A DNA stretch of 64,000 nt, taken from contig JARVJU010000004.1 in NCBI GenBank assembly GCA_029775965.1, positions 26,524 through 90,523 on the forward strand, given 5' to 3'. Position numbers and translations under genes: made by a program. Position 1 is the stretch's first letter. Each line of letters opens with the position of its first letter. Shown piece by piece: positions 774 through 55,902 of the stretch. The notes below the pieces were generated by a model. It was not told where the DNA came from, did not search any database, and saw only the letters and a program-made list of their open reading frames with translations. This stretch comes from Nitrososphaeria archaeon. GTDB lineage: Archaea; Thermoproteota; Nitrososphaeria; Conexivisphaerales; DTJL01.

Positions 774-921
774 AAGGTTTTCGTCGCCTACAGCGTCTAC
801 CCGGAAAGTAATTTATAAATTTAATCTAATTTTTATTTATCTGAATAGTTTTAGAACAAATTTCCTTATTATGACGGCTGACAAGAGAAAAGATTAATAC
901 AAAAATTCGTCACAACATATT

Positions 922-2454: not shown

Positions 2455-2475
2455 GCCATTATTGGGGCATGGTGC

Positions 2476-2484
2476 ATATATAAG
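2476..2484. promoter_or_regulatory. Palindromic TATA-like box shared by the divergent guaA and hpt genes
   Basis: ATATATAAG is the only A/T box in the 52-bp spacer. It sits about 23-27 nt from both ATGs (2454 and 2507). Confidence 0.4.
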
Positions 2485-2506
2485 AGTGTACAGCATTGCG
2501 TGGCAT

Positions 2507-6810: not shown

Positions 6811-8505
6811 TCACTTTTTTACTTGCAATTGGTACAGTCTGATTACCTTGTCAAGGGTATCTGCATCTTCTGGCTTTTTATCTTCCCTGATCCTCTTTAT
6901 GCGAGGAAAACGAAGTGCAAATCCACTTGTATGTCTATTACTTATTTGTATTGAATCAAACGAAACCTCCAAGACTATGGCAGGTCTGACCTGTATTCCA
7001 TTCCATGTTTCCCTTATGCCTAGCTGTTTAAGTCTCAGGGTCATGTCTTTAATTTCCTCGTCTGTCAACCCACTGTAGGCTTTGCCTATCGTCTTTAATT
7101 CATCACCGTCCCAAACGGCAAATGTATAATCGGACAAAAGCCCGGCTCTTTTACCATTCCCCCATTCTGCAAAGACTATTACAGCATCGATAGTTTCCAT
7201 TTCTTTTTTTAGCTTGATCCATGCTCCTCCTCTTCTTCCTGGTGTATAGACAGATTCCGGGTCCTTAAGAACCAACCCTTCATATCCTAAATTCAAGCTC
7301 TTTGCAAAAATATTTTTGATCTCCTCTTCGGATTTAACTGGAATACTTGCTGCCATTCTGACTATATCAGGAAATGAAAAATTACTAAGAAATATCTTTC
7401 TATAGCTAAGCTTTTGATCTATCAACCCCCTGCAATTAGCATAGAGAATGTCAAAAACGAAGTACTTCATGGGCACTTCCGATAGAATCTCCTTTACCAC
7501 TTTGCGCCTGTGCAACCTTAGCTGTAGTTTGTGAAAAGGAAGCTGTATATCGCCTTGTGCTGCAACAGCCTCTCCATCAAGTATTGCGTTCATATTCATT
7601 GAAGAAAGTGCGCTTGCTATTTCTGGGAAGGATCCTGTAATATCTTCCATTCGTCTTGTAAACAATTTCGTTTTATTATCGAATATATGTGCCTGCAGTC
7701 TGATTCCATCATACTTATACTCAGCGAATACCTGCTTAGCAAAATGATGGTAGGCTTCACTTACATCTTGAACAGGAAGAGGAAGCATAAAGGCTACGGG
7801 AATGAATGGTTCAGGAGAAGGCGCACCCATATCACCTGAGGCAAGCTTTTCAGCTAGCCTCCCTACATTACCAAGGATGAGATACCAATCTCTAATAGAG
7901 CTCAAATTGAATGTCTTAGCCAAGGAATCAAGGACTATCCCCTCCGTAGCCCCTATTCTCAAGTCTCCAAGAATTATCTTTACCAAGTACTTGGCTTCGA
8001 GAGCTGAGCTTTGAATCAAAAGTCCTTGCAAAATTCTTCTTTTATAGATTACACTCTTTTCGCCTTGTATTTCAGCTAGGCTGTCAAAAGAGGATTGCAC
8101 AGCAGGCAAGGTTAATCTTTCTTCTTTAAGAGAAAGATATCTCCCTTTGCCAGCAAGTGCTTCCTCAACTACGTCACCCAAGTCTCCGAACTTCAAGTAT
8201 AAATTTCTGAATTTTTTTTCGTCTAAACCTGTCACCTCTTTCAAAGCTGAGACAATAAGAGACCAGCCTACGTTGAGCTTTCCCTTTGTACTAGCGATGC
8301 CAAGTATGAATCTGCATGTCGATGGCAGAAGATGCTTTGGTATTCTTCTCATATGATCTGAAAGGATTTCTATCTTTTCATTTTTGCTTGAGGTAGAAGC
8401 TACCTTATCAAGCGTTTCACAAAAGATGCTAAACTCTTCATACCCTTCAGTCATGCAATTATGCATGTATGCTTCTGCATTATATAAGTGGTTATTGCTA
8501 GGCAT
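6811..8505 (-). CDS. ATP-dependent DNA ligase, paralogue 1 (DBD + adenylation + OB)
   Basis: Motif I AEYKYDGIRLQAH, motif III FVFDILY, motif IV EGLVLKD, motif V AWIKLKK. C-terminal OB domain with LRFPRIKRIREDK. Confidence 0.85.
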   Translation of the reverse strand: MPSNNHLYNAEAYMHNCMTEGYEEFSIFCETLDKVASTSSKNEKIEILSDHMRRIPKHLLPSTCRFILGIASTKGKLNVGWSLIVSALKEVTGLDEKKFRNLYLKFGDLGDVVEEALAGKGRYLSLKEERLTLPAVQSSFDSLAEIQGEKSVIYKRRILQGLLIQSSALEAKYLVKIILGDLRIGATEGIVLDSLAKTFNLSSIRDWYLILGNVGRLAEKLASGDMGAPSPEPFIPVAFMLPLPVQDVSEAYHHFAKQVFAEYKYDGIRLQAHIFDNKTKLFTRRMEDITGSFPEIASALSSMNMNAILDGEAVAAQGDIQLPFHKLQLRLHRRKVVKEILSEVPMKYFVFDILYANCRGLIDQKLSYRKIFLSNFSFPDIVRMAASIPVKSEEEIKNIFAKSLNLGYEGLVLKDPESVYTPGRRGGAWIKLKKEMETIDAVIVFAEWGNGKRAGLLSDYTFAVWDGDELKTIGKAYSGLTDEEIKDMTLRLKQLGIRETWNGIQVRPAIVLEVSFDSIQISNRHTSGFALRFPRIKRIREDKKPEDADTLDKVIRLYQLQVKK

Positions 8506-9972: not shown

Positions 9973-11055
9973 ATGGCTTCAGAGCTCGAATCCATAGAGG
10001 AAACGACAAAGAAAATATTCAATGTATCAAATACCTATTACACACCTAGCGGTATGCTGGAGTTTAGTTTGACAGAAGAGGAAGATTATTCTTCACGTTT
10101 TAGCATTCTCATATCGGAGTTGAAAAAAAGAGGATATCTAGCTGTCCTACGGAAATCTAATTCTTCCGTGACTCTCAGCGTATTTAAAGTTCAACCTCAA
10201 AAAGATGGAAACCTCTATCTGCTACGCGTACTACTCTTGCCAGTAGCCATACTAACGATAATCATAGATGGGTGGTTCAGGTCACAGTTCCTATATCCTC
10301 TTGGCTCCATCCGCATAGTCATTACGGATACCGCAATCTATGGAATTCTTCTTCTCGGAATATTAGGATCGCATATGCTTGGACACTATATTTCAAATAG
10401 ATTCTGGGGTGTGAAGACAAATCTTCCATACTTTATCCCTGGTGTACCCATGGTCTTTCCTACGCTTGGGCACATAGACTTTCTTCATGAACGGTATACG
10501 AATTGGAATTCACAATTTGATTCGTCTGTAGTAGGTGCTCTTTTTTGTCTTCTTGCATCTATTGTAGCGCTCTTTGTAGGGATATTTGATACGAGAGTTA
10601 TGACTACAGAGATGGCAAGTTCTTTGTTCGGCTCAACAATACACAACGTACAACTGCCCATAGGGGTTGTCTATCTGCTAAACCATTTCTTTCCCGCTGG
10701 GCCTGGTCAAGTGCAGCTCTTATCCCCTTTACTTTCTGCAGCCAGCTTTGGGTTTCTGATATCTTTTCTTAATATTATACCGCTCTGGAATTTTGACGGC
10801 GAAAGAGCTGCAGCTCCGTTGCTTAATCCTAGGTACAGGTTTAGTATCACATGGATAGCTGTGTTAGCATTCCTTCTTATGCAGTATTATTGGCTTGCCT
10901 TCGCCGTCTTGGTGTTTTCCTGGAACGTAAGGGATGTTAGACCGCTAGATGAAGTTTCACCTATCTCGCCAAAAAGGAAGATAATTCTGTTCATTGTTTT
11001 AGCTGTAGCTGTCATAACCTTTTACTTATTCTTATACCCTCCATACATTAGCTGA
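9973..11055 (+). CDS. M50 (site-2 protease) family membrane protein with HMLGH in place of HExxH
   Basis: Cytoplasmic N-terminal domain followed by multiple TM helices. GSHMLGHY at the HExxH position. NIIPLWNFDGERA matches the NxxPxxxxDG zinc-ligand motif. Confidence 0.6.
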   Translation: MASELESIEETTKKIFNVSNTYYTPSGMLEFSLTEEEDYSSRFSILISELKKRGYLAVLRKSNSSVTLSVFKVQPQKDGNLYLLRVLLLPVAILTIIIDGWFRSQFLYPLGSIRIVITDTAIYGILLLGILGSHMLGHYISNRFWGVKTNLPYFIPGVPMVFPTLGHIDFLHERYTNWNSQFDSSVVGALFCLLASIVALFVGIFDTRVMTTEMASSLFGSTIHNVQLPIGVVYLLNHFFPAGPGQVQLLSPLLSAASFGFLISFLNIIPLWNFDGERAAAPLLNPRYRFSITWIAVLAFLLMQYYWLAFAVLVFSWNVRDVRPLDEVSPISPKRKIILFIVLAVAVITFYLFLYPPYIS

Positions 11056-15097: not shown

Positions 15098-16780
15098 TCA
15101 ACCGTACCTGTACCTTACTCCGTGACCATCAAGTTCGTGCGTAAATGTAACCATCTCCTCAGGTCCTATGACGCCACATGTACCACACGCTACACAGGCC
15201 ACATGGTCGAATCTCAGCTCAGATTCTGCTATATCCTTGAATGTCTCGCTCATAGCTAGCTGATATCCTTTATCACCTGCCTTGCTGCCGAGCGATGAAA
15301 GGTTATGAAGAAAGAGGTCTCTGTACGAAGCGAAGACCCCTTTTTTACTGAATATTGTATAGCAGTTCATGGGGCAGGCCGGTACCCACGGTTTAAGAAC
15401 GGACTTACTACATAGATCTGTATTCACCTTTATGTGAGAATAATACTTATCTTCGTCATAGGTGAGTAGACCTGTTCCTGACTGCACTCGCTGGATGGCA
15501 TCTAGGTTTGCATTCTGTTTATATTGATTCTTTTCCTTTTGTACACCTTTACCGAAGGAGATAACTAATTTAGGAAAGAGTCTATATGCGAGAAAACTCT
15601 CGGACATGATGCTATCTCTTCTCGAATAATTAATATCTCTATAGATGGGTGCTAGGGATTGTTTGTAGAGTGATAGAACCTTCTTGTCAAAAGAATTCTG
15701 CCTATACGCATGCATTATAGTTTCAGCGGCCATTATTCCCGATGCTATGGCCCTGCGCATACCATCTATTAGTGAACCGACCTTCACAAAAGTTCCCAAA
15801 GCATCTCCAGCGACAAGAAAACCATCTGTGTAAGGTGTTGAGAGCATTGTTCTGTATCCTTTCGGTATATTATGAGCCGAGTATTCTACCAGCTGTGCAC
15901 CATCAATCATCGAGCCAACTAGCGAAGTTGATTCAAGTCTGTCCTGAGCGTCCAGCAGCTTACCTATCTCATTAAATCTTGTTGTAGTTGTCTCTATCAT
16001 AGATGTCATAGAAGCAACTATTCCCACAGAAAGAGTGTCATAATTTGTATATACAAAGGCGCCACCATGTATTCCGTACATAAAGTCTCCCATCAAAAAG
16101 ATGGCAGAGCCTTCTCCCTGATTCAGTCCAAATCTTTTCTCTATTGTAGAGCTGTCAAGCTTGTAAACTCTCTTTATCCCATGATACAGGTCTTCGGGTT
16201 TTAACCTTTCTCTGAGTCCAGCCTTCTCAAGAAGGTTTGAAGTGACTCCTGAGCAATCAACTACAACCCTAGAAATGACATCTCCTCTTTGAGTTGAAAC
16301 ACCTGCTACTCTTCCTTGTTCTACGATGAGGTCGGTTACAGTTGATTGAGTAGAGAGCATAGCTCCAGCCTCGACTGCTTTTAGAGAAAACCATCTGTCG
16401 AACTTTCTCCTAAGAACTGTATAATCATGACCTGACTCGCTGGGTATTTTAGCTAGGCCCAACTTTGACCATAGAGAGCTTTTTGTCATTCTGTAGTATT
16501 TTGTAAGTTCTCCTTTTTTATCAGTGGAAACGACATAGATTTCGTGCTTCATTATCTTTCGCTCAAGCGGCGCTTCTTTCTCAAATTCTGGAATTAGGTC
16601 CGTCAAGCCATAGGGGGGTATAAAATTCCCATAAAGCACGCCACCTGTTACGTTCTTTTCACCTGGTATCTTTGCCTTCTCAAGCATTAGGACATTCAGC
16701 CCGTTACGGGCTAGGGTTATTGCGCATGCTGACCCTGCTGGACCAGCCCCAACTATTACTGCATCGAACTCAGGCTGTAT
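15098..16780 (-). CDS. fixC: ETF:quinone oxidoreductase FixC fused to a FixX-like ferredoxin domain
   Basis: FDAVIVGAGPAGSACAITLARNG (FAD Rossmann motif) lies upstream of the first ATG at 16687. The C-terminus CPMNCY...ACVACGTCGV..GVRYRYG is FixX-like. The start is set at ATA 16780 (see findings). Confidence 0.75.
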   Translation of the reverse strand: MQPEFDAVIVGAGPAGSACAITLARNGLNVLMLEKAKIPGEKNVTGGVLYGNFIPPYGLTDLIPEFEKEAPLERKIMKHEIYVVSTDKKGELTKYYRMTKSSLWSKLGLAKIPSESGHDYTVLRRKFDRWFSLKAVEAGAMLSTQSTVTDLIVEQGRVAGVSTQRGDVISRVVVDCSGVTSNLLEKAGLRERLKPEDLYHGIKRVYKLDSSTIEKRFGLNQGEGSAIFLMGDFMYGIHGGAFVYTNYDTLSVGIVASMTSMIETTTTRFNEIGKLLDAQDRLESTSLVGSMIDGAQLVEYSAHNIPKGYRTMLSTPYTDGFLVAGDALGTFVKVGSLIDGMRRAIASGIMAAETIMHAYRQNSFDKKVLSLYKQSLAPIYRDINYSRRDSIMSESFLAYRLFPKLVISFGKGVQKEKNQYKQNANLDAIQRVQSGTGLLTYDEDKYYSHIKVNTDLCSKSVLKPWVPACPMNCYTIFSKKGVFASYRDLFLHNLSSLGSKAGDKGYQLAMSETFKDIAESELRFDHVACVACGTCGVIGPEEMVTFTHELDGHGVRYRYG

Positions 16781-17861
16781 GGTCGCTCCCCTCTATCTTA
16801 CTAATCATCATGGGTAAAAACTCGTACAAGTCCTGTACTATAGGGTAGTGGGCTATTTGAAATATGGGTGCCCTTGGGTCTGTATTTACTGCGACTATCT
16901 TCTTTGATTTTTGCATACCAACTCTATGTTGTATGGCCCCGCTAATTCCAAGAGCTATATACACATCTGGACTGACCGTAGTTCCTGTTTGGCCGACCTG
17001 ATTATCATGAGATATCAGACCTTCAAGCTCTTTAAGTCGTGCGTTTATTAGCGCTCGACTTGCTCCAATTTCAACCTTGAACGCATATTTCTTTTCTATT
17101 GCTTGTTTTAGCTTAAATGCATACTCATATGCTTCCTTTGGATTTCTGGAGTTTCCCTTTGCGTCATGAAGTATACCAAGACCCAAGCTGATGATGACGT
17201 TCGCAGCCTTAAGGTCCAGCTTTGGTTTTTCAAGCTGTTTCATCTCTGTTATTGTAGCTGGGTAGCTGTGCGAAAATGTAGCATCAAATCTCTCTATCTC
17301 CCCTTGCTTGTTGTAATTTGCCTCCAAGGGTTTGAAGTTACCTGGTCTTATAGTTGCCATCTGAGGCCTACAGGTAGGGGTGAATATCTTTGCTATTCTT
17401 GTGCCAAAATCGGGCCTTATCTGAACTAGTAAATTATCATAATTCTGCTTTAGCATAGGATTGTAAAAGTTCCCTATATCAAGCTCTATAGTTCCTGTAG
17501 CCAGACCCGTCTTGAGTCTATAGGCAATCCTTGGAGCAAGGTCTTTACCTATTTCATTTTCCACAAAGATAAAAGCGTACGGCCTTCTATCCCTAGCTAG
17601 CTCAGTCAGAGCATCTATATATGCTAAATTAAAATAGGTGTTGAGTGTTTTATCGTCACAGTATAGCACCTTATCTGCACCATACCAAATAGCTTGTTGG
17701 AGTAGCTCTTTGTTTCCGGATCCAAGCAATATCCCAACAAGCTTCTGTCCAAGTTTGTCTGCAACCTTTCTTCCTGCTGAAAGAACCTCAAGCGAATCCT
17801 TGCTTAAAGAAGAGTCTTCACTTTCCAAGTATACCCATATATCATTGTACCCGTTGATCAT
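16770..17861 (-). CDS. etfA: electron transfer flavoprotein, alpha subunit
   Basis: VGQTGTTVSPDVYIALGISGAIQH is the FAD-binding signature. 363 aa. ATGA overlap with etfB. Confidence 0.9.
   Translation of the reverse strand: MINGYNDIWVYLESEDSSLSKDSLEVLSAGRKVADKLGQKLVGILLGSGNKELLQQAIWYGADKVLYCDDKTLNTYFNLAYIDALTELARDRRPYAFIFVENEIGKDLAPRIAYRLKTGLATGTIELDIGNFYNPMLKQNYDNLLVQIRPDFGTRIAKIFTPTCRPQMATIRPGNFKPLEANYNKQGEIERFDATFSHSYPATITEMKQLEKPKLDLKAANVIISLGLGILHDAKGNSRNPKEAYEYAFKLKQAIEKKYAFKVEIGASRALINARLKELEGLISHDNQVGQTGTTVSPDVYIALGISGAIQHRVGMQKSKKIVAVNTDPRAPIFQIAHYPIVQDLYEFLPMMISKIEGSDHTA
16787..16793 (-). promoter_or_regulatory. Shine-Dalgarno-like GAGGGGA upstream of the putative ATA start of fixCX
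   Basis: GAGGGGA, then 6 nt, then ATA. It lies inside the 3' end of etfA, consistent with translational coupling. Confidence 0.4.
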
Positions 17862-19039
17862 CTGAACAGTTCCTCCAAAAGCATGTCTATGCCAAATATA
17901 CCTATCTTATTCTCATTCTGGAGCTTATTCACAAGCTCATCAGGTAAGCCATCTGCAATATCTCCTCTACCAAAAGGCCCGAATTTTCTTCCATCATACT
18001 CCACCGATTCAATATTTTCGAGAAAGACTCTCGTTTTGCCCACAATTTTTTGTGCAGGAGGCTTCCCAACATCAACCCCTGGGCCGACTATGGTGGGTGA
18101 CCCTTTCAGACCCAGTCTGTTCTCGTCTGCACCTATTTCCTGAGAGCTCCATACTATGGGTTTCAGTGTTCTTCCTTTGAAGTTGTTGCTTCTTACCATA
18201 ATTTGTCTTTTCGGGTCTATAGGTCGTTGGATATATTCATCAGCAATTGTTATAAGCGCCGGAAGCTCCATTCTAACCTTCTGAACAAGGAGCCCAAGTC
18301 TCCTTTCTGTAACTAAAAAGTAATTATCAAAAAAGAAATCTTCTACGTAAGTTGCATGTGGAACTGTTCTGCCGATTAACTCGGAAAGACCCTCGGCAAC
18401 TTGTGGACCAACACTTCCCGTTTCTCCATCAGTTGTTTTAATTCCTGCTATTATAATGAACTTCTGAATTGATTCTTGCTCTGATTGTAGCTGTTTTATA
18501 GCTTCATCTTTAGTGATATAACCATCTACATACCTTTGTATGATGCTGTCCTTGATGGGTTTGAGGTCTGAAAATACGTTGTTCGGGATCAAGTTATCAT
18601 TATAATATTTTTCTGCTTCACTCTTTATCTGATCCTTGGGCTTATCAAGCTTTATCATTTCGATTAACTGATTTATTGGCTTTGTATGCCATCGAACTAT
18701 GGTATTTACCCCGAGTGCGATAGCATATGCTGTGGCTAGTGTATCAGCCCCGGCCATCTTTCTATCGCTAAGAATCACAGATTCCTCTATTCCATAAAGG
18801 TGCTCGAAATATAGTTGCTTAAGAATGGGTGACAGCTTTACTTCCGGGCCCATCGTAAGCCCTATTATCTTCCCTCCAACAGCTTGCTTCACATAACCAG
18901 CTGCCTCAACTGCCTTATAGTCATGAGGGTTCAGTACAAGGTTCATTGATTCCCTGTTAAGTATTCCTGTCACAGTCATAGCTTGGGTGGTTCTCTCTGG
19001 AACTCCTTTGAGCAAGACTATGATAAGCAACTCTTTCAC
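17858..19039 (-). CDS. etfB: electron transfer flavoprotein, beta subunit, unusually long (393 aa)
   Basis: N-terminal LNPHDYKAVEAA..GPE..AGADTLATAYAIA, later AGIKTTDGETGSVGPQVAE and GSPTIV. It carries an internal insertion of about 78 aa and a C-terminal extension of about 75 aa. Confidence 0.8.
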   Translation of the reverse strand: MKELLIIVLLKGVPERTTQAMTVTGILNRESMNLVLNPHDYKAVEAAGYVKQAVGGKIIGLTMGPEVKLSPILKQLYFEHLYGIEESVILSDRKMAGADTLATAYAIALGVNTIVRWHTKPINQLIEMIKLDKPKDQIKSEAEKYYNDNLIPNNVFSDLKPIKDSIIQRYVDGYITKDEAIKQLQSEQESIQKFIIIAGIKTTDGETGSVGPQVAEGLSELIGRTVPHATYVEDFFFDNYFLVTERRLGLLVQKVRMELPALITIADEYIQRPIDPKRQIMVRSNNFKGRTLKPIVWSSQEIGADENRLGLKGSPTIVGPGVDVGKPPAQKIVGKTRVFLENIESVEYDGRKFGPFGRGDIADGLPDELVNKLQNENKIGIFGIDMLLEELFR

Positions 19040-30787: not shown

Positions 30788-32353
30788 CTATTCTTCCATT
30801 CCTAAAGACTTTTTCAGAGAATCGACCTTCTGCCTGAACTGCTCTACTGTTACTCTTCCGGCTACTCTCTCTTCCAGCAAAAGACGAGCCTCTTTGTAGG
30901 CCTGTTCAATCTTCGCATCTTCGTTGGTTAACTTGTCAGTAGCCTGCCTAAGAGATTTATCCTTTTTTGCCCTGTTCCTGAAGTCATTTATTTTCGAAGA
31001 GATTTCACTTCTCTCTGATTCCAAGAGCTTTCTCTGGTCACTGTAATATGCATAAGGTATGAAACCTTCTCCTCTTAACCTTATATCGTCCAGCAAGCCA
31101 AGTATAATCGCCTTCTTCCTAGATATGATCTCCTCAACTTCACTTCCTTTTTTCTTTCGGACCAGGACTAGGTACACAGCTATAAATATTATAGCTGCCC
31201 CAAAAGCGACGGCAAGTGTAGGTCTGATTCCCCATGACCAAGGGATAGATGCTGTCAATTCAACAGAAGGCAGAGCTGTTATATTGTAAAAGCTGCTTGG
31301 AGTTAAGAACTCTGCACTGGAACCCTTTGGAAAGCTATAGTCTACGCTATACTTTTGTATATAATTGACGTAGCTAGGAATTCCTTGGTCTAATGATATC
31401 CTAACCCTTCCTGATGAATAACTCAGATCATCTTTAGGTAATGTGTACTGTATAACCAGTGTTGAAACGCTATTGTAAGGTATGGGAGAAGGAAGATTAA
31501 GCACTCCTTGGCTTAAAGAAGTAGGTGATGGATGTATAAGCCCCTGTCCAACATAAAATGTTCCAGTCAGAGGTTGTGTAAGATATATTGAAGAAAGCTC
31601 TGTTGTGTCCAAGTTCATAATTGTCACACTGTCTGTAACCATAAACCCGCCGTTTGATGTAAATTCGACTGTTCTTTCTACGCTCAGTATCCTGTATATA
31701 GCGAAGTCAGATGTACCCTGCGACACGAAAGAAAGATTGAATGAAAATGGTACGAACTTTGTTACATTTCCGTACGTATAGCTCCACAACTGATTGACAG
31801 ATGGCTGACTGGTAAAGTTGTATGAAGCTAAAGTTGCTGGGTTAATTACAGAGACGAATTGGGAAGAAGGCAAAGTTATCATACTTGTTGCTTTTGTCTC
31901 ATTTCCACCTGTGACCTTCACATCCGGTATCGAGAATACCTGAATGTTATAGACCCCTGTAATCGTCTCCTGAATAGCACCATTCAGCCTAATCGAAAGG
32001 CTTGGATGCCCAACAGTAAAGACAGTGCCAGTGAAGACTGTCCCATTATTGTTATAGGAGGGTTTTACGTCCATTCCTGTCTCGTTGTAAGACCATAACG
32101 AGCTGTATACATATCCTGGATAGACTATGCTTACTGGTACAGCTGGTGGTATAGAGACAGCAGAAGAATTTGAGAATGTCAAAGTGGTATTTAGGAAAAC
32201 CCATCCAAATCTATCTATTGCTATGCTCTGACTAACTGAGAATCCAAACTGTCCAGAGCCAGATATGGGCTGTTGCTGAGCTGCAGCTAAGGTGGAAAAT
32301 GATGAAGCAACGATCAATATGTTTATGAAAAGCAGCAGCAATGTATGCCTCAA
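30788..32353 (-). CDS. type I membrane glycoprotein, ribophorin I (OST1)-like candidate
   Basis: Signal peptide, a sequon-rich ectodomain of about 370 aa, one TM helix (LAVAFGAAIIFIAVYLVLV) and a charged coiled-coil tail of about 125 aa. Blocks ERTVEFTSNGGFMVTDSVTIMN, LVIQYTLP and EERVAGRVTVEQF resemble ribophorin I as I remember it. Confidence 0.45.
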   Translation of the reverse strand: MRHTLLLLFINILIVASSFSTLAAAQQQPISGSGQFGFSVSQSIAIDRFGWVFLNTTLTFSNSSAVSIPPAVPVSIVYPGYVYSSLWSYNETGMDVKPSYNNNGTVFTGTVFTVGHPSLSIRLNGAIQETITGVYNIQVFSIPDVKVTGGNETKATSMITLPSSQFVSVINPATLASYNFTSQPSVNQLWSYTYGNVTKFVPFSFNLSFVSQGTSDFAIYRILSVERTVEFTSNGGFMVTDSVTIMNLDTTELSSIYLTQPLTGTFYVGQGLIHPSPTSLSQGVLNLPSPIPYNSVSTLVIQYTLPKDDLSYSSGRVRISLDQGIPSYVNYIQKYSVDYSFPKGSSAEFLTPSSFYNITALPSVELTASIPWSWGIRPTLAVAFGAAIIFIAVYLVLVRKKKGSEVEEIISRKKAIILGLLDDIRLRGEGFIPYAYYSDQRKLLESERSEISSKINDFRNRAKKDKSLRQATDKLTNEDAKIEQAYKEARLLLEERVAGRVTVEQFRQKVDSLKKSLGMEE

Positions 32354-32473
32354 ACGTCTCTCTCAGCCCGCACGAACGAAACATTATTTATACATATTGG
32401 GGGTTCAAGTAGCCTTATCATTACAGAGACCTTTAGCTAAGCCTTAAAAGGGATTGCGTGCGACTATAAAAGT

Positions 32474-33856
32474 ATGAAAAAGTATTCCCATCTTTTGCCG
32501 AATGAGCTCAAGGTTGAAGATATGATGAAAATTCTTGGTATAAATAAGATAGAAAGTCTTTACGAAGATGTGCCGCAACAATCACTTCTGAAGGAGCTAC
32601 CGAAGATACCAGGTCCTTTTAGCCAGATGGAGATAGAAAGATTAACGAAGAATGTATTAAAGAATGTGAGTGTTCATCCTGATTCGCCATGCTTTCTTGG
32701 CGGTGGTATATGGCCTCACTACATACCTCCAGCCGTAGATGCGATATCGTCTAGGTCAGAGTTTTATACATCTTACACTCCCTACCAGCCTGAGGTTAGT
32801 CAGGGTATACTTCAGGCTCTGTTTGAATACCAGAGTATGATATGTGATCTTACTCATATGGACGCTGCTAATGCATCCATGTATGATTGGGCGACAGCAG
32901 CGGCAGAGGCTGCTCGTATGGCTATCAGAGTTACTAAAAGAAAAGACCTTCTTGTAGCTATGAATGCAGGATATGAAAGAAGGAGAGTGATTCAGACATA
33001 CCTCGAGCCTATAGCATCTCGCATATTACAGATTCCATACGATAAGAGGACAGGGCGTATCGATATGAAAGAGGCAGATAGGCTGATAAAAAGTGCAGAT
33101 GTGGCAGCAGTATATGTGGAGCAACCGAACTTCTTCGGGGCGATAGAAACTTCAATAAAGGAAATCTCCGAGCTTGTGCACTCTAGAGCAGGTTTGCTGA
33201 TTGTGGGGGTAGAGCCTACGAGTCTTGGTCTACTCAAGCCCCCCGGTGATTATGGTGCGGATATAGTGGTAGGGGAAGGGCAGCCTTTAGGTATCCCCAT
33301 GAATTATGGAGGCCCTTCTTTAGGAATATTTGCAGTTAAGGGCGATATCTCTTTCATAAGGCAGATGCCAGGGAGGATTATAGGGATTACCACTGAAAAG
33401 AAGTCAGAGAGAAAAGGGTATGTCATGGTACTCCAATCAAGAGAGCAGCACATTCGTAGAGAGAAGGCAACATCTAATATATGCACGAACCAAGCTCTTA
33501 TGGCTGTTAGAGCTGCTGCTTATATGGCGCTTCTGGGTCCACTGGGGTTTAGAAGGTTAAGCCAAGTTATAACATCAAACTCCCATTATACTGCCAAACT
33601 AATTCGAGAAACTAAAGAGTATGAAGCTCCTTACTTTGAATCAGAATTCTACAGCGATTTTACTATTCTTCCAACCACAAAAAAGACAAGGGGAAGAGCA
33701 CTGTATGAATATCTTACAAAAAGGGGGGTAAACGCCGCTCTCCCTTTGGATTGGTTCTACGAGGAATTGAAGGATGTTTCAATGATCTCTGTCACTGAAG
33801 TGCACCTCAAGGAGGATGTCAATAGGCTACTGAATTGTCTAGTGGAGGCAGAATAG
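32474..33856 (+). CDS. gcvPA: glycine dehydrogenase (decarboxylating), subunit 1
   Basis: YTPYQPEVSQGILQALFEYQ, ANASMYDWATA and REQHIRREKATSNICTNQAL. Confidence 0.9.
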   Translation: MKKYSHLLPNELKVEDMMKILGINKIESLYEDVPQQSLLKELPKIPGPFSQMEIERLTKNVLKNVSVHPDSPCFLGGGIWPHYIPPAVDAISSRSEFYTSYTPYQPEVSQGILQALFEYQSMICDLTHMDAANASMYDWATAAAEAARMAIRVTKRKDLLVAMNAGYERRRVIQTYLEPIASRILQIPYDKRTGRIDMKEADRLIKSADVAAVYVEQPNFFGAIETSIKEISELVHSRAGLLIVGVEPTSLGLLKPPGDYGADIVVGEGQPLGIPMNYGGPSLGIFAVKGDISFIRQMPGRIIGITTEKKSERKGYVMVLQSREQHIRREKATSNICTNQALMAVRAAAYMALLGPLGFRRLSQVITSNSHYTAKLIRETKEYEAPYFESEFYSDFTILPTTKKTRGRALYEYLTKRGVNAALPLDWFYEELKDVSMISVTEVHLKEDVNRLLNCLVEAE

Positions 33857-33860
33857 TAAA

Positions 33861-35351
33861 TTGGTCTACAGACAGGCGGCTTGGGATGAAAAGCTTCTAA
33901 AAGAATACTCAAGTAAAGGAAGGACAGGATTTGTTCCACCTGACCCAATCGGCGAGGAAGTAGAATTATCTATACCAAAGGAATTGAAGAGGGATGATGT
34001 AGAGCTGCCATCTTTGACAGAATTGCAGGTCATTAGGCACTTTGTCAGACTTTCCCAGATGAATTATTCGGTAGACACAGGAATGTATCCTCTTGGCAGC
34101 TGCACGATGAAGTATAACCCAAAACTCAATGAAAAAATAGCATCAGATCCGAAGATAAATGACGCCCATCCTTATCAGCATCATTCTACTGTCCAGGGGA
34201 TACTTTCAATCTTATTCGACCTTTCGAACTGGCTGGCTGAGATATCTGGAACGGACAAAGTCAGCCTTCTTCCTGCTGCAGGAGCTCATGGGGAATTCGT
34301 AGGGGTGCTCATGATTAGAAAGTACCACCAAGCTAACGGAAGAAGCGATAAGACCCAAATCATTATACCCGATTCTGCTCATGGCACAAATCCAGCTAGT
34401 GCCGCAATGGCAGGATTTGATGTGGTGACAGTACCTAGCAATGCAAACGGACTGGTTGACATGGAGAAGCTAAAAGGATTGGTAGGGCCTAAAACGGCAG
34501 GTATGATGATGACGGTTCCTAATACTCTTGGTCTGTTCGAGAAGGACGTTCTTGCTATATCAAAGCTCATACATGACAACGGAGGATTGATGTACTATGA
34601 TGGTGCAAATATGAATGCAATACTGGGTCGTGTAAGGCCTGGAGACCTTGGGTTCGACATAGTTCATATGAATATACATAAAACATTCTCTACACCGCAT
34701 GGCGGTGGAGGCCCAGGCTCTGGTCCTGTAGGAGTAAAGTCATTCCTTGCAGATTACCTGCCTGTCCCCCGGCTTGTAAAAAAAGAAAATACCTACACAT
34801 GGGTCTATGATTCTCCCAATACAATAGGATTTATCAAAGGATGTTATGGCAACATAGGTGTTTTGGTTCGTGCCTTTGCCTATCTACTCACCCTAGGTCC
34901 TAAAGGTCTTCTAGATGTTTCTTCCCAGGCAGTGCTCTCATCGAACTACCTGATGAAGAAACTTGACCCTACACACTATAGCTTACCATTCGCAAAGGAT
35001 GTGCCAAGGAAGCACGAGTTTGTTGTTTCCGCAAGACCCCTTGTTGATAAAGGTGGCAGCGCTCTGAAGGTGTCAAAAGCTATACTTGACTATGGCCTTC
35101 ACTCACCCACCGTATACTTTCCGCTGATAGTAAATGAAGCACTTATGGTAGAGCCCTCTGAGTCCGAGCCTGTTGAAAACTTGGATGAGTACGCTATGGT
35201 AATGAACGAAATAGGCGATACACTGTCTCGTGATCCTTCAAGGCTTGATGATGCTCCTAAAAATACAGCTGTGGCAAGCCTCGATGAAGCAAAGGCGTCT
35301 CATCCACTTACCATAGCTCTAAACTGGAAGAAGATAGCAGGCAAAGAATAA
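33861..35351 (+). CDS. gcvPB: glycine dehydrogenase (decarboxylating), subunit 2 (PLP-binding)
   Basis: YPLGSCTMKYNP and NIHKTFSTPHGGGGPG (PLP lysine context). TTG start lies 5 nt after the gcvPA stop. Confidence 0.9.
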   Translation: MVYRQAAWDEKLLKEYSSKGRTGFVPPDPIGEEVELSIPKELKRDDVELPSLTELQVIRHFVRLSQMNYSVDTGMYPLGSCTMKYNPKLNEKIASDPKINDAHPYQHHSTVQGILSILFDLSNWLAEISGTDKVSLLPAAGAHGEFVGVLMIRKYHQANGRSDKTQIIIPDSAHGTNPASAAMAGFDVVTVPSNANGLVDMEKLKGLVGPKTAGMMMTVPNTLGLFEKDVLAISKLIHDNGGLMYYDGANMNAILGRVRPGDLGFDIVHMNIHKTFSTPHGGGGPGSGPVGVKSFLADYLPVPRLVKKENTYTWVYDSPNTIGFIKGCYGNIGVLVRAFAYLLTLGPKGLLDVSSQAVLSSNYLMKKLDPTHYSLPFAKDVPRKHEFVVSARPLVDKGGSALKVSKAILDYGLHSPTVYFPLIVNEALMVEPSESEPVENLDEYAMVMNEIGDTLSRDPSRLDDAPKNTAVASLDEAKASHPLTIALNWKKIAGKE

Positions 35352-35462
35352 TTCTACTGGGTCAAAAATTTTACATTGCTTGTTAACTAGTTATGAGTGT
35401 TTGTTGTTAAATCATTGGGTTGATAAACCAGATGTCTGCAAGTGACCAATGGTTTGTCGTCC

Positions 35463-36389
35463 ATGGAGGGGAAGACTCTGCTCGTTGGTGTAGGCAGGTC
35501 GGGGTGCAAGATAGTTCAGGAAATAAAGCAGTATAATACAGAGGTTGATACGTATTATGTTACAACAGAGCAGAAATATCTACCATCAAAAAACGATTTT
35601 CTTGATTGGAGGAGGCTCGATGAGGACTCTATCAGGGGTATCTTTGCAAACATCTTAGATGGAACAAATCAGGTCGTCGTCTTTGGAGGGCTTGGTGGCA
35701 GGTCGGGGTCATTGCTCATTCCTCGGGTTGTATCAGCTGTAAGAGGCCTTGAAATAAACTGCTGTGCAATTGTGCTTCTCCCCTTTGAACATCAGTCAGA
35801 TATGGAATATACAGCAGGTGCGTCTCTTGCCAGGATTAGAAAGAAGGCGAGTTCTCTTATCATAATAGATAGGCAGCAGTTTGTGGAGGAAAGTTTCGAT
35901 GAACTTCCATTGGAGAAGGTTTACGAAGGGATAAACTCAAAAATAGCGAATATTGTGGCATCTCTCCTCAAAGAGGATAGCAGAATTTTTGAATCATTAA
36001 TGGGCGGGGAGACGATCCTTGAGATCAAGGATGCTGGAGAAGGATTTTCTAAAGCAGTTTCATCGATAACAAGGAGGGTAGTAGAACAGATAAAAGATGA
36101 TACTGACAATTTACTAGTTGTATCTAGTGGTAATAGACCGACTACATTAGGTGGATCCAAGTATCTTTTGAACGGTTTCAGAAGCCTTGTGTCCCAAAAT
36201 GCAAAGGTAAGATATATCAACGCAGCACAGCAGAACCACGAATCCTTAATAGCTGTGCTCGCCCATTCACAAGGGGGTATAAAGCTCCGAGTCTATGACC
36301 CTGTGGACGAGATCCTGGGCGATAAGTCCATAGATGATGACCCAGAAAGCGGGTTTCATATTCCTCTAATGATAGAACGAATAGACTAA
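35463..36389 (+). CDS. divergent FtsZ/tubulin-superfamily protein with degenerate GTPase motifs
   Basis: Collinear with FtsZ. LLVGVGRSGCKIV aligns with the T1 loop GGGGNN. VVVFGGLGGRSGSLLIP aligns with the T4 loop GGGTGTG. IVLLPFEHQ and SLIIIDRQQF also align, and a C-terminal domain is present. The T3 and T7 loops are not recognisable. Confidence 0.55.
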   Translation: MEGKTLLVGVGRSGCKIVQEIKQYNTEVDTYYVTTEQKYLPSKNDFLDWRRLDEDSIRGIFANILDGTNQVVVFGGLGGRSGSLLIPRVVSAVRGLEINCCAIVLLPFEHQSDMEYTAGASLARIRKKASSLIIIDRQQFVEESFDELPLEKVYEGINSKIANIVASLLKEDSRIFESLMGGETILEIKDAGEGFSKAVSSITRRVVEQIKDDTDNLLVVSSGNRPTTLGGSKYLLNGFRSLVSQNAKVRYINAAQQNHESLIAVLAHSQGGIKLRVYDPVDEILGDKSIDDDPESGFHIPLMIERID

Positions 36390-51487: not shown

Positions 51488-52261
51488 ATGAACGATCCAC
51501 CAGATCCAATTTCAAAAGAACTGACGCTGATAGCCTTATCTGGCTTACCTGAAATAAAACAGGGTGACGATATCGCCTCTGAGATCTTTAAGGCGCAGAA
51601 GAAGCTAGCTATAGATTTCGAAGACGGAGATATATATGTGATAGCTCAGAAAGTAGTATCAAAGGCTGAAGGCAGAGTGGCCAAAATTAATAGCATAGCT
51701 CCCTCTGTATTTTCCTCTGAATTTGCAAAATTTTTGTCTAAGGATCCAAGGGAAGTCGAACTCATACTCAGGGAGAGCAAGTCAGTAGTCAGGGCTAGGC
51801 GTGGAATCCTGATAACTGAAACAAAAAGAGGCATAGTCTGCGCCAACGCTGGAATAGACAGGTCAAACGTAATGGGAGATGACTCTGCTCTTCTCTTGCC
51901 TGAAAACCCTGATAGGTCTGCGTTGAAGATAAGGAAAAGACTTGAGAAGCTTACTGGCAAAATGCTTGCTGTTATAATATCTGATACCTTTGGCCGGCCT
52001 TGGCGCGAAGGACAAGTTGACTTTGCTATAGGAGTTTCAGGTATCTCCTGTTTCAGAGATTACAGAGGAAAGAGGGATATGTACGATAGAGTACTGAGAG
52101 TGACCAGAATAGCTCAGGTTGACGAAATAGCTGCTGCAGCAGAGCTACTGATGGGAAAGGCGAGGTCTATTCCCGTTGTGCTCATGAAAGGGTACAGCTT
52201 CGAAAGGGAAGATGGCTCAAAGAAGCTGCTGAGAAGGATAACACGTGACCTATTCAGGTAG
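51488..52261 (+). CDS. cofE: F420-0:gamma-glutamyl ligase CofE
   Basis: VIAQKVVSKAEGR, GIVCANAGIDRSN, ISDTFGRPWREGQVDFAIG and IADEIAAAAELLMGK-like blocks. Confidence 0.85.
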   Translation: MNDPPDPISKELTLIALSGLPEIKQGDDIASEIFKAQKKLAIDFEDGDIYVIAQKVVSKAEGRVAKINSIAPSVFSSEFAKFLSKDPREVELILRESKSVVRARRGILITETKRGIVCANAGIDRSNVMGDDSALLLPENPDRSALKIRKRLEKLTGKMLAVIISDTFGRPWREGQVDFAIGVSGISCFRDYRGKRDMYDRVLRVTRIAQVDEIAAAAELLMGKARSIPVVLMKGYSFEREDGSKKLLRRITRDLFR

Positions 52262-53206
52262 ATACTGCTCTATCCTTTTCAGAATTTTCAATGCAAATTT
52301 TTCCTTTTCCTCTGCGGTATGCATAAGTGTATCAAGAACGATGCATTTGACGCCAAGGGACTCTATTTCATTTCTTAGCTCTTCATCTCTAACATCAAGC
52401 ACAAACGCATCTATGAAAGGGAGATAAAATCTGCATACACCTACTGGGCTTGGATCAATACCTAGAGATCTCATCATTCTGTCAGCAGGGCCCTTTATCG
52501 CTCTCCCTCCTACTATGGGTGTAACAGCTATTCTGAAAGCCCTTGCAGCTGTCAACCTTCTGTAAAAATCTCCTATTGCAAGTATTGGTCCGATACTAGC
52601 TATAGGATTGCTCGGACAGATGATCAATGCATCGGAAGTATCAAGATACGACTTAGCTTCTTCTGTAATTTCAGCACTGCCTGATCCCTCATACCTTATA
52701 GCTAAAACATCGGGTTGGGAATTGTACTTCACAAAATATTCCTCGAACGGTATCCACCCAGAAGATGTAAAAATCATAGTAGTCATCTTCCCGTTGGTTG
52801 CAGGTGCTATGTCCATATCTACACCAAGCAATCTTGCTACCTCTTTTGTGATGCTAGAAAGGGTGGCTCCCTGTGAAAGCCTCCAAGTTCTGTAGATGCT
52901 TACTGCTAGGTCAGCATCCCCCAGCATAAGATAAGGTTTAGCGTTCAACCTTTCGGAAAAACTCATAAAGTTGAATGTATCATTTTTTATTCCCCATCCC
53001 TTCAATTCATCTACAATACCAGCTAGAGTATAAGTAAGGATATCTATATCAGGACAAAGCCTTAGACCAAGTATATCTGAATCATCCCCGACGTTGACTA
53101 TTGCTCTAAGTTGAAGTTTCTCTCCGTTTCTGTTTCTGTATAGACCTTCTACCAGCTTTGATCCTCCTACACCCCCGCTGAGGCATGTTATTCTTTTACC
53201 ATTCAT
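52250..53206 (-). CDS. cofD: 2-phospho-L-lactate (or EPPG) transferase CofD
   Basis: ITCLSGGVGGSKL, ICPSNPIASIGPIL and the typical length of about 310 aa. Confidence 0.85.
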   Translation of the reverse strand: MNGKRITCLSGGVGGSKLVEGLYRNRNGEKLQLRAIVNVGDDSDILGLRLCPDIDILTYTLAGIVDELKGWGIKNDTFNFMSFSERLNAKPYLMLGDADLAVSIYRTWRLSQGATLSSITKEVARLLGVDMDIAPATNGKMTTMIFTSSGWIPFEEYFVKYNSQPDVLAIRYEGSGSAEITEEAKSYLDTSDALIICPSNPIASIGPILAIGDFYRRLTAARAFRIAVTPIVGGRAIKGPADRMMRSLGIDPSPVGVCRFYLPFIDAFVLDVRDEELRNEIESLGVKCIVLDTLMHTAEEKEKFALKILKRIEQYLPE

Positions 53207-53816
53207 TGAAATGCACCACCTCTTTCATATCCCTTACCTTCTTAGGCTTCGGTTTCTGCATGGGATATCCTAATTCTATCAATGCCTGAGGCTCCATACT
53301 ATGCGGAATGTTGAACTCTCTGTTTATATGGTTCGCCATAAACAGAGCAACACCCCTCCAGCATGCTCCCAGTCCTAATGCGGATGCAGCAAGCAGAATA
53401 TTTTGAGCCATGGCAGCTAAGGATTGGGTGCCCATTATCCATTCGTTACGAATTCTTCGCCAAGATGCTTCTTTTCGCAGCTCATCTCTTGCAAGGAAGA
53501 GAATCAGTATTACTGGAGCAGAAACAATCCTTTCTCTAGCTTTTCCAGCTTTTACTGTTGCTCCAGCTATATTTCTTGCAATGAGTGATTTGTAGTAGAG
53601 CTTCGATGCCAAGTCTGCAAGTTGTTCTTTCTTTGATGCATCATCAATTACGAGTATCCTCCACGCTTGAAGATTATGTGCTGAAGGAGCACTCAACGCG
53701 GCCTTCAGTATACCTATGATTTTATTGCGATCCACCTTCTTTGCTTCAAATCGCCTTATTGTTCTTCTCTGCAAAATTAATGCTAAACCTTCATCCATGC
53801 TATCCTTGCAGTGCAT
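53196..53816 (-). CDS. nitroreductase-family FMN protein translationally coupled to cofD
   Basis: RRTIRRF...V....I..IL.AA..APSAHNLQAWR is the nitroreductase N-terminal signature. The stop overlaps the cofD start by 11 nt. Confidence 0.75.
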   Translation of the reverse strand: MHCKDSMDEGLALILQRRTIRRFEAKKVDRNKIIGILKAALSAPSAHNLQAWRILVIDDASKKEQLADLASKLYYKSLIARNIAGATVKAGKARERIVSAPVILILFLARDELRKEASWRRIRNEWIMGTQSLAAMAQNILLAASALGLGACWRGVALFMANHINREFNIPHSMEPQALIELGYPMQKPKPKKVRDMKEVVHFNEW

Positions 53817-54117
53817 ATGCGATTTAAGACTTCGTTGATAGGCGTTTTATTTGGGTAGACTGTGCAAAGTTTATCCATGAATTTTATACGATATTCTTGC
53901 AAAAAAGTGGCATACTGAGTAGACAGGATAAATAAATACCTCTAATGCTGTTGAGCGTACCTTTGAATCGTCTGAGCACAGATATCACCAAGCTTTCAGG
54001 TGTTGTATGATGAGACCATAAAAATGCTAGCTTTGTTCCTTCAATTCTACTGTAAAAGGCTCAACGATTAAGGCGATGATAGAAACAGCTATTAATTGCT
54101 GCGAGCTAGTTTCACAT

Positions 54118-55902
54118 ATGGAGGACCTGCCCTATTCAGAGCTTGTAAAGTGCTACGAGACCATGTCTAATACTACTAGAAGGACAGAGCTTACGGAAGC
54201 TCTTGTTTCTTTCTACAAAAAGACACCGATCAAAGTTTTAAAGAAAGCTACCTACCTCAATCAGGGAAAGCTGTACCCCGATTACTTAGGAATAGAAATA
54301 GGTGTGGGAGAAAGACTTACAGAGCGTGCTATTAGCATCGCTTCAGGCCTGTCTGTAGAAGCTGTAAGGCAGCTGTACCGCAAACTCGGGGATTTGGGCA
54401 GCGCAGCACAGCAGGCACTAGAGTCAAAAAAACAGTACTCTTTGTACAAGGAAACTCTAACCATTTCTAAGGTCTATGATACACTGGACCAGATAGCTAA
54501 GACATCTGGCGAAGGTTCAGTCGACGAAAAGCTGAACCTCCTATCAGGTCTTCTGAGCAACGCGGATCCAGCTGAAGCGAAATACATAGTTAGAACTGCT
54601 ATAGGAAAGCTCAGACTAGGTATAGCTGATTATACAGTTCTGGATGCTCTGGCGATAGCCTTTGCCGGAGAAAAAGAATACAGAGAAGATCTTGAAAGGG
54701 CATACAATCTCTCTAGCGACCTTGGTGAAGTGGCAGAAGCAATAGCTTCTGGTGGATTAAAGGCCGTCCGCTCCATCAAGATAACCATAGGTAGGCCAGT
54801 TAGACCAATGCTTGCAGAAAGACTATCAAGTGCAAAGGAAATAATAGAAAAGATCGGGGGGCAATGTAGCGCAGAATACAAGTATGACGGGGAAAGAATG
54901 CAGATTCATAAGAATGATGAAAATGTGAGTATATTTTCAAGAAGATTAGAAGTGATAACTCACAACTATCCAGATGCGGTAAAGCTGGTACAATCTTCGA
55001 TAAAGGCAGACAGAGCTATACTTGAGTGTGAGGCTGTAGCTGTGGATCTGCAGACTGGCGAACTGCTGCCATTCCAGCAGCTTATGCACAGACGAAGAAA
55101 GTACGGTGTTGAGAGAGCCATGGAGGATATTCCTGTTTCTCTTTTCTTCTTCGATATTCTTATGGTTGATGACAAAGATTACACTATAAGACCGTATACA
55201 GAAAGGAGAAAGAAGCTTCAGGAAATAATAGAGGTAGGAGAAAGGGTGAAGGTTGCGCCTAATATAGTTACCAATCACCCAGAAGAATTGGAGAGATTCA
55301 TGCAGCAGGCTATTCAGGATGGTTGTGAAGGTCTCGTAGTCAAGGACCTGCACAGTAGCTACAAAGCAGGTGCAAGGGCATTCTCCTGGATAAAGCTCAA
55401 AAGGGAGTACAGAAGTGAACTGACAGATACCATAGACCTAGCTATAGTTGGAGCATTCCATGGACGAGGGAGAAGGACGGGTGTATATGGCGCCTTTCTG
55501 CTGGCTGCCTATGACAGTGAGGATGATACATTCAAGACAACCTCAAAGGTGGGGACAGGCTTCTCCGATGACGACCTGAAGACTATCACAAATGAACTTG
55601 AGCAATATAAACTCCCACACAGAAGCCCTAGGGTCTTATCTGAGATGGAAGCGGATGTATGGTTCCAGCCTGCGCTAGTCATAGAAGTTATAGCATCAGA
55701 AATAACGCTAAGCCCTATCCATACAGCAGGTAGAGGAAGGATAAGACAGGATTCTGGGCTAGCATTGCGTTTTCCTAAATTCACAGGAAACATAAGGAGG
55801 GATAAGGCTGCAGAGGATGCTACTACTGTGAATGAGCTGGTAGAAATGTACAATTCGCAACTGAAGAAGGTGGAAGCATCTCCTGAAGAACTTCAAAGAT
55901 GA
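54118..55902 (+). CDS. lig: ATP-dependent DNA ligase, paralogue 2 (canonical archaeal Lig1-like)
   Basis: Motif I AEYKYDGERMQIH, motif III FFFDILM, motif IV EGLVVKD, motif V SWIKLKREY, plus LRFPKFTGNIRRDK. The start could be ATG 54118 or ATG 54076. Confidence 0.9.
   Translation: MEDLPYSELVKCYETMSNTTRRTELTEALVSFYKKTPIKVLKKATYLNQGKLYPDYLGIEIGVGERLTERAISIASGLSVEAVRQLYRKLGDLGSAAQQALESKKQYSLYKETLTISKVYDTLDQIAKTSGEGSVDEKLNLLSGLLSNADPAEAKYIVRTAIGKLRLGIADYTVLDALAIAFAGEKEYREDLERAYNLSSDLGEVAEAIASGGLKAVRSIKITIGRPVRPMLAERLSSAKEIIEKIGGQCSAEYKYDGERMQIHKNDENVSIFSRRLEVITHNYPDAVKLVQSSIKADRAILECEAVAVDLQTGELLPFQQLMHRRRKYGVERAMEDIPVSLFFFDILMVDDKDYTIRPYTERRKKLQEIIEVGERVKVAPNIVTNHPEELERFMQQAIQDGCEGLVVKDLHSSYKAGARAFSWIKLKREYRSELTDTIDLAIVGAFHGRGRRTGVYGAFLLAAYDSEDDTFKTTSKVGTGFSDDDLKTITNELEQYKLPHRSPRVLSEMEADVWFQPALVIEVIASEITLSPIHTAGRGRIRQDSGLALRFPKFTGNIRRDKAAEDATTVNELVEMYNSQLKKVEASPEELQR

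Follow-up and report, generated by a model that had tools for sequence, protein, structure and literature searches.

A remote homologue of ribophorin I/Ost1 encoded in a Conexivisphaerales archaeon of the phylum Nitrososphaerota

A 64,000-nt stretch of DNA from a Nitrososphaeria archaeon of the order Conexivisphaerales (assembly GCA_029775965.1, contig JARVJU010000004.1, positions 26,524 to 90,523; hereafter the window) carried an open reading frame (ORF) at 30788..32353 on the minus strand, with a TTG start and a product of 521 aa. Our analysis supported this product as a genuine but very divergent, remote homologue of Ost1/ribophorin I (RPN1), a subunit of the eukaryotic oligosaccharyltransferase (OST). 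A preliminary description made from the DNA letters had proposed a ribophorin I (OST1)-like glycoprotein; as a statement of homology the proposal held, since profile-profile comparison, the predicted fold and the alignment of the three sequence blocks named there all failed to refute it. By analogy with the eukaryotic subunit, the protein may also be an accessory subunit of an archaeal OST.

Sequence and fold evidence for homology

When a profile of 34 archaeal family members was compared in hhalign with human RPN1 alone, the probability was 93.7% (E = 1.8e-7, 306 columns). A profile enlarged to 76 sequences with genomic homologues gave 94.0% (E = 1.5e-7) against an alignment of RPN1, Ost1 and vertebrate sequences, and its 438 colinear columns paired residues 51-508 of the window protein with residues 46-584 of RPN1. 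By contrast, the reversed-sequence null, in which the reference alignment was reversed, gave 0.1% (E = 0.42). The human RPN1 query was identical to PDB 6s7o_E over all 607 residues, and residues 21-475 of yeast Ost1 were taken from PDB alignment output. The eukaryotic reference profile was narrow, since a word-indexed search with RPN1 and Ost1 had returned vertebrate RPN1s alone: it comprised the human and yeast proteins and RPN1s from 13 vertebrates, with no Asgard sequence in it. When the second luminal domain alone was aligned to this Ribophorin reference, a probability of 70-78% (E 4e-5 to 1.8e-5) was obtained in the cognate register (RPN1 223-383); the profile-profile signal stems mainly from this domain.

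A hidden Markov model (HMM) built from the 34-sequence alignment was also searched against PDB sequences. Human RPN1 (6s7o_E) ranked second with E = 0.017 and was the best non-artificial match; one of its two cognate stretches (RPN1 207-254) fell in the second beta-sandwich, and the two stretches coincided with blocks named in the preliminary description. That description had aligned three blocks to the eukaryotic proteins, and all three were reproduced in the hhalign alignment to the verified RPN1 sequence: ERTVEFTSNGGFMVTDSVTIMN was paired with an RPN1 segment of 22 residues, STLVIQYTLP with THYIVGYNLP and, in the last helices of the tail, LLEERVAGRVTVEQF with EAERLVAGKLKKDTY.

The structure was predicted with AlphaFold2, run without templates on the 34-sequence archaeal alignment, which contained no eukaryotic sequence. 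The full-length model had a mean predicted local distance difference test score (pLDDT) of 87.5, with strands at residues 36-369 arranged in two sandwiches, a transmembrane helix and four cytoplasmic helices (404-428, 434-464, 466-497 and 503-516) packed as a bundle. The predicted ectodomain has the fold of two tandem beta-sandwiches seen in the OST structures solved by cryo-electron microscopy (cryo-EM). When the model was searched with Foldseek against 350,542 PDB chains, ranks 1-6 were all RPN1 or Ost1 from OST cryo-EM structures, each with a probability of 1.00 and with 447-598 aligned columns. E-values for human RPN1 were 3e-20 (8b6l_O), about 8e-18 (8pn9_E and 6s7o_E) and 3e-15 (6s7t_E); those for yeast Ost1 were 2e-14 (6ezn_A) and 1e-12 (6c26_1). 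Rank 7, at 3e-5, was weaker by more than 7 orders of magnitude. E-values improved with the length of the RPN1 chain (3e-20 and 8e-18 for chains of 559-580 residues vs 2.6e-15 for a 428-residue OST-B chain), which suggests that regions beyond the luminal domains add to the match.

Several observations weigh against this reading. The search of the window protein against Pfam PF04597 (Ribophorin_I) that the preliminary description had proposed was negative, with no match even at E <= 10. The first luminal beta-sandwich alone had no sequence signal in hhalign against the Ribophorin alignment. The tail alone was aligned in the correct register (RPN1 511-584) but marginally, with E 6e-4 to 5e-3 and a probability of 7-28%. 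An HMM built from verified RPN1 and Ost1 sequences scored the family members at noise level, yet above reversed decoys. In the Foldseek matches to RPN1 and Ost1 the template modelling scores (TM-scores) were low (0.36-0.46), and with the tail alone the search was non-specific, the best E being 0.39 to designed bundles and syntaxin Habc. In addition, the structure is a prediction, and the yeast OST structures are probably older than the AlphaFold2 training cut-off, so some memorisation is possible.

Two of these points have an explanation. The low TM-scores follow from differently oriented domains, as expected for multi-domain proteins with other inter-domain angles. The missing specific tail match is not evidence against homology, because helical bundles are structurally generic and a control failed as well: the human RPN1 tail did not retrieve the tail structure of the Asgard OST1 of strain MK-D1 from the PDB by sequence. 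The tail-only AlphaFold2 model itself was of high score (pLDDT 95.3, predicted TM-score 0.86) and again had four helices; HMMER with a tail profile against the PDB retrieved nothing relevant, only coiled-coil noise. Searches of Pfam, NCBIfam and PDB sequences with the single protein likewise returned noise only (an O-antigen ligase at E 0.004, an SMC-related protein and a P450). PF04597 was weakly matched by 2 of the 34 relatives, with a best E of 1.6e-4 that was far from the Pfam gathering threshold. Because the search with the window protein was negative and only these two relatives matched weakly, the window protein is to be called a remote homologue.

Protein architecture and family

The features of the gene and its product, with residue numbers counted from the TTG start, were as follows.

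30788..32353, minus strand: complete gene for an Ost1/ribophorin I-like type I membrane glycoprotein, 521 codons plus stop (ORF list, a 99%-identical NCBI protein, and homologues matching over their whole length in 37 clusters and at more than 45 genomic loci)
32273..32353, minus strand: predicted signal peptide, aa 1-27 (MRHTLLLLFINILIVASSFSTLAAA/QQ, the slash marking the cleavage site), from the TTG start (hydropathy segment 1-26; AlphaFold2 helix 2-16 and low-pLDDT linker 17-32)
31739..32257, minus strand: first extracellular beta-sandwich domain, about aa 33-205, with 7 of the 9 sequons (AlphaFold2 strands 36-194, pLDDT mostly above 90; lies inside the full-length Foldseek and hhalign alignments, the latter from residue 51)
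31238..31738, minus strand: second extracellular beta-sandwich domain, about aa 206-372, holding the two best-matching blocks, ERTVEFTSNGGFMVTDSVTIMN and STLVIQYTLP (hhalign of the domain alone; family profile against the PDB)
31154..31225, minus strand: single transmembrane helix, aa 377-400 (AlphaFold2 helix 377-400; hydropathy 374-401; paired by hhalign with the RPN1 transmembrane region)
30791..31153, minus strand: predicted cytoplasmic four-helix domain, aa 401-521, including KKAIILGLLDDIRLRGEGFIPYAYY (tail-only AlphaFold2 model; weak in-register alignment to RPN1 511-584)
32385..32392, minus strand: TATAAATA, an element resembling a TATA box, about 33-40 nt upstream of the TTG start (read from the sequence)

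An NCBI entry named "hypothetical protein [Conexivisphaerales archaeon]" was also 521 aa long and 99% identical to the window protein, and the N-terminus was kept in a relative with 41% identity (P0002; MRHTLLLLF vs MKRAFLLLF). The TATAAATA element lay in a 120-bp divergent intergenic region common to the gene and gcvPA; its position suggests an archaeal promoter element.

Hydropathy and the AlphaFold2 model confirmed the architecture given in the preliminary description, a signal peptide followed by a sequon-rich ectodomain, one transmembrane helix and a cytoplasmic tail. The hydrophobic N-terminal stretch ran to AAA/QQQ, and an A-x-A motif places the probable cleavage site of the signal peptide there. 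The ectodomain spanned roughly residues 28-376; it was about 349 aa long rather than the 370 aa first estimated, and was free of cysteine. All eight N-x-S/T sequon types listed earlier (NTT, NSS, NET, NGT, NFT, NVT, NLS and NIT) were present and NET occurred twice, making 9 sequons in total. In composition-preserving shuffles 4.7 +/- 1.9 sequons were expected (p ~0.03). Sequons were found outside only, with 0 in the tail, and the same outside/inside asymmetry was seen in all 34 relatives examined. Hydropathy, the model and the sequon asymmetry predict a type I topology with a cleavable signal peptide, the N-terminus outside, one transmembrane helix and the C-terminus in the cytosol, and the protein itself is probably an N-glycosylated membrane glycoprotein. 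The tail had been described as a K/E/R-rich coiled coil of about 125 aa; the K/R/E-rich composition was correct, and the tail comprised 121 aa predicted to form a four-helix bundle rather than a long coiled coil. With 27 K+R and 23 D+E it was mildly basic (net +4), and the net charge of the tail ranged from -6 to +14 across the family.

The family was small. When 1.84 billion representatives were scanned exhaustively in HMMER with a profile of three sequences (E <= 1e-3), 37 clusters were retrieved, nearly all of 500-570 aa and matched end to end, and every named member was annotated "hypothetical". A word-indexed homologue search, with either the single protein or the 34-sequence alignment, retrieved two relatives only, probably because low-complexity words dominated it. 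Two members were much longer and may each be a fusion or an artefact of assembly or gene calling. P0006 (712 aa) was extended at the N-terminus by about 170-200 aa; P0008 (903 aa) was extended there by about 70 aa and also had a long C-terminal region that was apparently frameshifted or unrelated.

Genomic loci were found with a 5-sequence alignment. The closer relatives, with 30-44% identity, came from hot-spring-type metagenomes and from a 2.07-Mb NCBI contig (JBAIIB010000001.1, GCA_037025065.1). A distant branch with about 20% identity came from soil, peat and groundwater: 42 species-level GTDB genomes had a member, and each carried the label Nitrososphaerales, Thaumarchaeota, Nitrososphaerota or uncultured archaeon. 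Neither the scan of 1.84 billion representatives nor the search for genomic loci returned a member from a cultured ammonia oxidiser. The Conexivisphaerales are not Asgard archaea but belong to the phylum Nitrososphaerota in the kingdom Thermoproteati (TACK). Among the closer relatives the tail was the best-conserved region, with 52-57% identity vs 27-46% for the ectodomain.

Genomic context and proposed role

The gene was flanked by Lrp, glnA and an aldehyde dehydrogenase gene on one side and by gcvPA-gcvPB on the other, and no AglB/STT3 gene was present in the window, as the preliminary description had it. The closer relatives kept the order gene, Lrp/AsnC, glnA, aldehyde dehydrogenase. In the window and in about 40 Nitrososphaerales genomes the gene lay in head-to-head orientation to gcvPA-gcvPB, behind which came a short FtsZ/tubulin-like gene. 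Because this divergent arrangement of gcvPA and the gene was kept at only about 20% protein identity, it points to ancient vertical inheritance within the Nitrososphaerota rather than recent transfer. The surroundings of the gene were unremarkable in GC content (0.40 vs 0.40-0.46 across the window). The FtsZ/tubulin-like protein of the gcvP block (window 32474-36389, plus strand; loci L008-L050) was unusually short at 315 aa, with a partial Tubulin Pfam match (E 4.9e-10).

We favour, with moderate confidence, the explanation that the protein is a divergent Ost1/ribophorin I homologue acting as an accessory of AglB and the Sec translocon, with a tail that docks on the ribosome. SecYE-beta would insert it into the membrane in type I orientation, and the ectodomain would itself be N-glycosylated. 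At the cytoplasmic membrane, the transmembrane helix and the membrane-proximal domain would dock on AglB, the archaeal counterpart of STT3. The beta-sandwiches would lie beside the AglB active site and take charge of nascent chains as they emerge, a task that ribophorin I performs for some substrates. The conserved cytoplasmic four-helix domain would bind the translating ribosome and so couple translocation to glycosylation, a scheme modelled on the eukaryotic OST-A/Sec61 translocon and on in vitro data for the MK-D1 OST1 tail. For the ribosome contact, tail conservation and the MK-D1 precedent offer indirect support.

The neighbourhood spoke against a link with AglB. No ORF with the WWDxG motif of STT3/AglB was found in the window or within 10 kb on either side of the gene in 50 related loci, and no small membrane partner was conserved downstream in Nitrososphaerales-type loci. 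The conserved neighbours (gcvP, the FtsZ-like gene and Lrp-glnA) gave no genomic tie to glycosylation. Of the 41 window ORFs of at least 150 aa that were scanned, none had STT3 or another glycosylation Pfam family; they were housekeeping or metabolic genes, or had no Pfam match.

The main rival view, in our judgement less likely, is that of a genuine homologue of Ost1/ribophorin I that works independently of AglB, as a stand-alone ribosome or translocon receptor or as an extracellular holdase for secreted proteins; such a role might even be ancestral and have been recruited into the eukaryotic OST later. It draws on the same homology evidence, and it would fit both the lack of aglB linkage in the 50 loci and the conservation of the cytoplasmic tail above the ectodomain. 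Archaeal AglB is moreover generally regarded as an enzyme of one subunit, the Nitrososphaerota glycoproteomics paper being an example. The two species studied there each have aglB, though our searches recovered no family member from cultured ammonia oxidisers, and the mere 37 clusters of the exhaustive search suggest that glycosylation as such can do without the protein. However, wherever it has been studied Ost1 is an integral OST subunit that touches STT3, as in the matched PDB entries, and archaeal agl genes are typically dispersed, which makes missing synteny weak evidence.

It is improbable that the protein is an unrelated archaeal surface glycoprotein, such as one associated with the envelope or S-layer, whose two beta-sandwiches, membrane anchor and charged helical tail came to resemble ribophorin I by convergence. 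Sequon-rich beta-sandwich ectodomains are common in archaeal surface proteins, and the lacking Pfam match, the silent N-terminal domain, the generic tail fold and the low TM-scores would all suit such a protein. But the six best PDB matches were exclusively RPN1/Ost1, ahead of integrins and the N-domains of M1 aminopeptidases by more than 7 orders of magnitude; the 438-column alignment was colinear at 94% against 0.1% for the reversed null; specific motif blocks occurred in the same order; and RPN1 was the best non-artificial match of the family HMM in the PDB. Convergence is unlikely because the matches are both specific and colinear.

Recent, lineage-specific acquisition by horizontal transfer from an Asgard archaeon or a eukaryote, which the patchy taxonomic spread (37 clusters, none from cultured ammonia oxidisers in our searches) could suggest, is very improbable and was rejected on the normal GC content, the core housekeeping neighbourhood, the deep synteny of the gcvPA/gene arrangement between Conexivisphaerales and about 40 Nitrososphaerales genomes, and the extreme divergence from the eukaryotic proteins (9-12% identity).

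Other ORFs of the window were also inspected. A 529-aa ORF (15098-16687) was considered as a paralogue or second OST subunit and rejected: it had no transmembrane segment, had the look of a FixC/FixX-type electron transfer flavoprotein (ETF) oxidoreductase and adjoined the ETF alpha/beta genes. In this region (15098-19039, minus strand), the ETF alpha/beta pair was followed by the 529-aa ORF, which had no Pfam match at E <= 1e-5 and ended in a ferredoxin-like Cys cluster (CVACGTCG); it looks like a fused FixC/FixX-type ETF-quinone oxidoreductase unrelated to the Ost1-like gene. A 333-aa ORF (3091-4092, plus strand) without a Pfam match, with a membrane anchor at residues 12-46, an S/T-rich region and 6 sequons, is probably a surface glycoprotein. 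Two polytopic membrane proteins had no Pfam match at E <= 1e-5. One of 360 aa (9973-11055, plus strand), which has about 5-6 hydrophobic segments and contains SHMLGHY, a motif of the HxxxH-like kind, might be an M50/site-2-protease-like candidate, and the other, of 214 aa (6134-6778, minus strand) with about 5 segments, might be a prepilin-peptidase-like one.

Two full-length ATP-dependent DNA ligase paralogues of 564 and 608 aa (6811-8505, minus strand; 54076-55902, plus strand) were present in the 64-kb window, both with N, adenylation and C domains. An F420 cluster (51488-53816) comprised a F420-0:gamma-glutamyl ligase (CofE-type), a CofD 2-phospho-L-lactate transferase and a nitroreductase-family protein; since these F420-related genes were clustered, the organism probably makes coenzyme F420. 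In three loci of Conexivisphaerales relatives (L005-L007, about 551-3142) the topoisomerase VI A gene carried an intein, giving a product of about 860 aa; a Pfam Intein_splicing match lay between two TOP6A Toprim matches.

Significance and comparison with known Ost1 proteins

The preliminary description held that archaeal homologues of ribophorin I had been reported mainly from Asgard archaea, a view that needs updating. A 2016 survey did not find archaeal homologues of the non-catalytic OST subunits (PMC4973528). Reports of Ost1 and Ost3 homologues in Asgard archaea date back to 2017 (PMC10307638; PMC8993221), and in 2023 Eme et al. described the reported prokaryotic homologues of Ost1 as Asgard ones (PMC10307638). 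According to a 2024 paper, OST1 is present in both TACK and Asgard archaea; neither its main text nor one supplementary text names Thaumarchaeota or Nitrososphaerota (PMC11417166). The same paper describes the cytosolic domains of human RPN1 and of MK-D1 OST1 as four-helix bundles, the latter of which pulls down ribosomes in vitro (PMC11417166). In a 2025 glycoproteomics study of Nitrososphaerota only AglB is listed, and the two ammonia oxidisers studied each have aglB.

Archaeal OST1 was thus already known, and its presence somewhere in TACK archaea had been noted. What is new is this divergent family, which is unannotated, invisible to Pfam, equipped with an RPN1-type tail and confined to the Conexivisphaeria and a set of Nitrososphaerales metagenome-assembled genomes (MAGs). 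The family gives concrete sequences behind a one-line statement in the literature. Ribophorin I/Ost1 serves as a eukaryotic signature protein in arguments on the Asgard origin of the translocon of the endoplasmic reticulum. A full-length family with an RPN1-type tail appears to have been inherited vertically in a deep Nitrososphaerota (TACK) lineage, which pushes the likely origin of OST subunit 1 before the divergence of Asgard and TACK archaea. Absences of eukaryotic signature proteins that are based on Pfam are unreliable at such distance. The family is useful for the debate on these proteins, although a specialist aware of the TACK statement would not be surprised by it.

It is conceivable, if somewhat doubtful, that Nitrososphaerota outside the ammonia oxidisers possess a multi-subunit, ribosome-docking OST composed of AglB and an RPN1-type Ost1 with a cytosolic bundle. 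If so, a eukaryote-like co-translational Sec/OST architecture would be older than the Asgard/TACK split, and not an Asgard or eukaryotic innovation, and lineages without a detected gene, such as the ammonia oxidisers, would have lost it. Conexivisphaera has a cultured representative, in which it may be possible to find out whether archaeal AglB works together with an accessory subunit and a domain that docks on the ribosome.

In eukaryotes the OST also contains the subunits TMEM258/Ost5, OST48, RPN2 and DAD1; on the archaeal side the comparison with known proteins covered the window. The M1 aminopeptidases (ERAP1, aminopeptidase N) formed the second Foldseek tier through their N-terminal beta-domain (probability 1.00, about 200 columns, E ~2e-4 to 9e-4), and one sandwich domain of the archaeal protein has their general fold. 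In contrast to the RPN1 match, this was a single-domain match without the transmembrane helix, tail or colinearity, and its E-value was more than 10 orders of magnitude weaker.

Yeast Ost1 (6ezn_A, 6c26_1) shares with the archaeal protein the two luminal sandwiches and the transmembrane helix over about 455 aligned columns. The yeast chain, however, stops just past the transmembrane helix (476 residues; alignment with RPN1 to residue 464), whereas the archaeal protein has an RPN1-type tail. The Asgard OST1 of Prometheoarchaeum syntrophicum MK-D1 is alike by its published description, in which a signal peptide precedes an N-terminal region outside the cell and the cytoplasmic part is a four-helix bundle (PMC11417166); it differs in that the family reported here belongs to the Nitrososphaerota (Conexivisphaeria and Nitrososphaerales MAGs), and the likeness is drawn from published descriptions.

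Mammalian RPN1 (6s7o_E, 8b6l_O, 8pn9_E, 6s7t_E) gave the best Foldseek match (3e-20), and its matching blocks lay in the second sandwich and in the final helices. Identity was only 9-12%, the archaeal protein is shorter (521 vs 607 aa) and falls below the PF04597 threshold, and it is placed in the cytoplasmic membrane, where its catalytic partner would be AglB. Both are glycoproteins, the archaeal one by prediction, and both combine a signal peptide, two tandem sandwiches, a single transmembrane helix and a C-terminal cytosolic helical bundle of about 120-145 aa.

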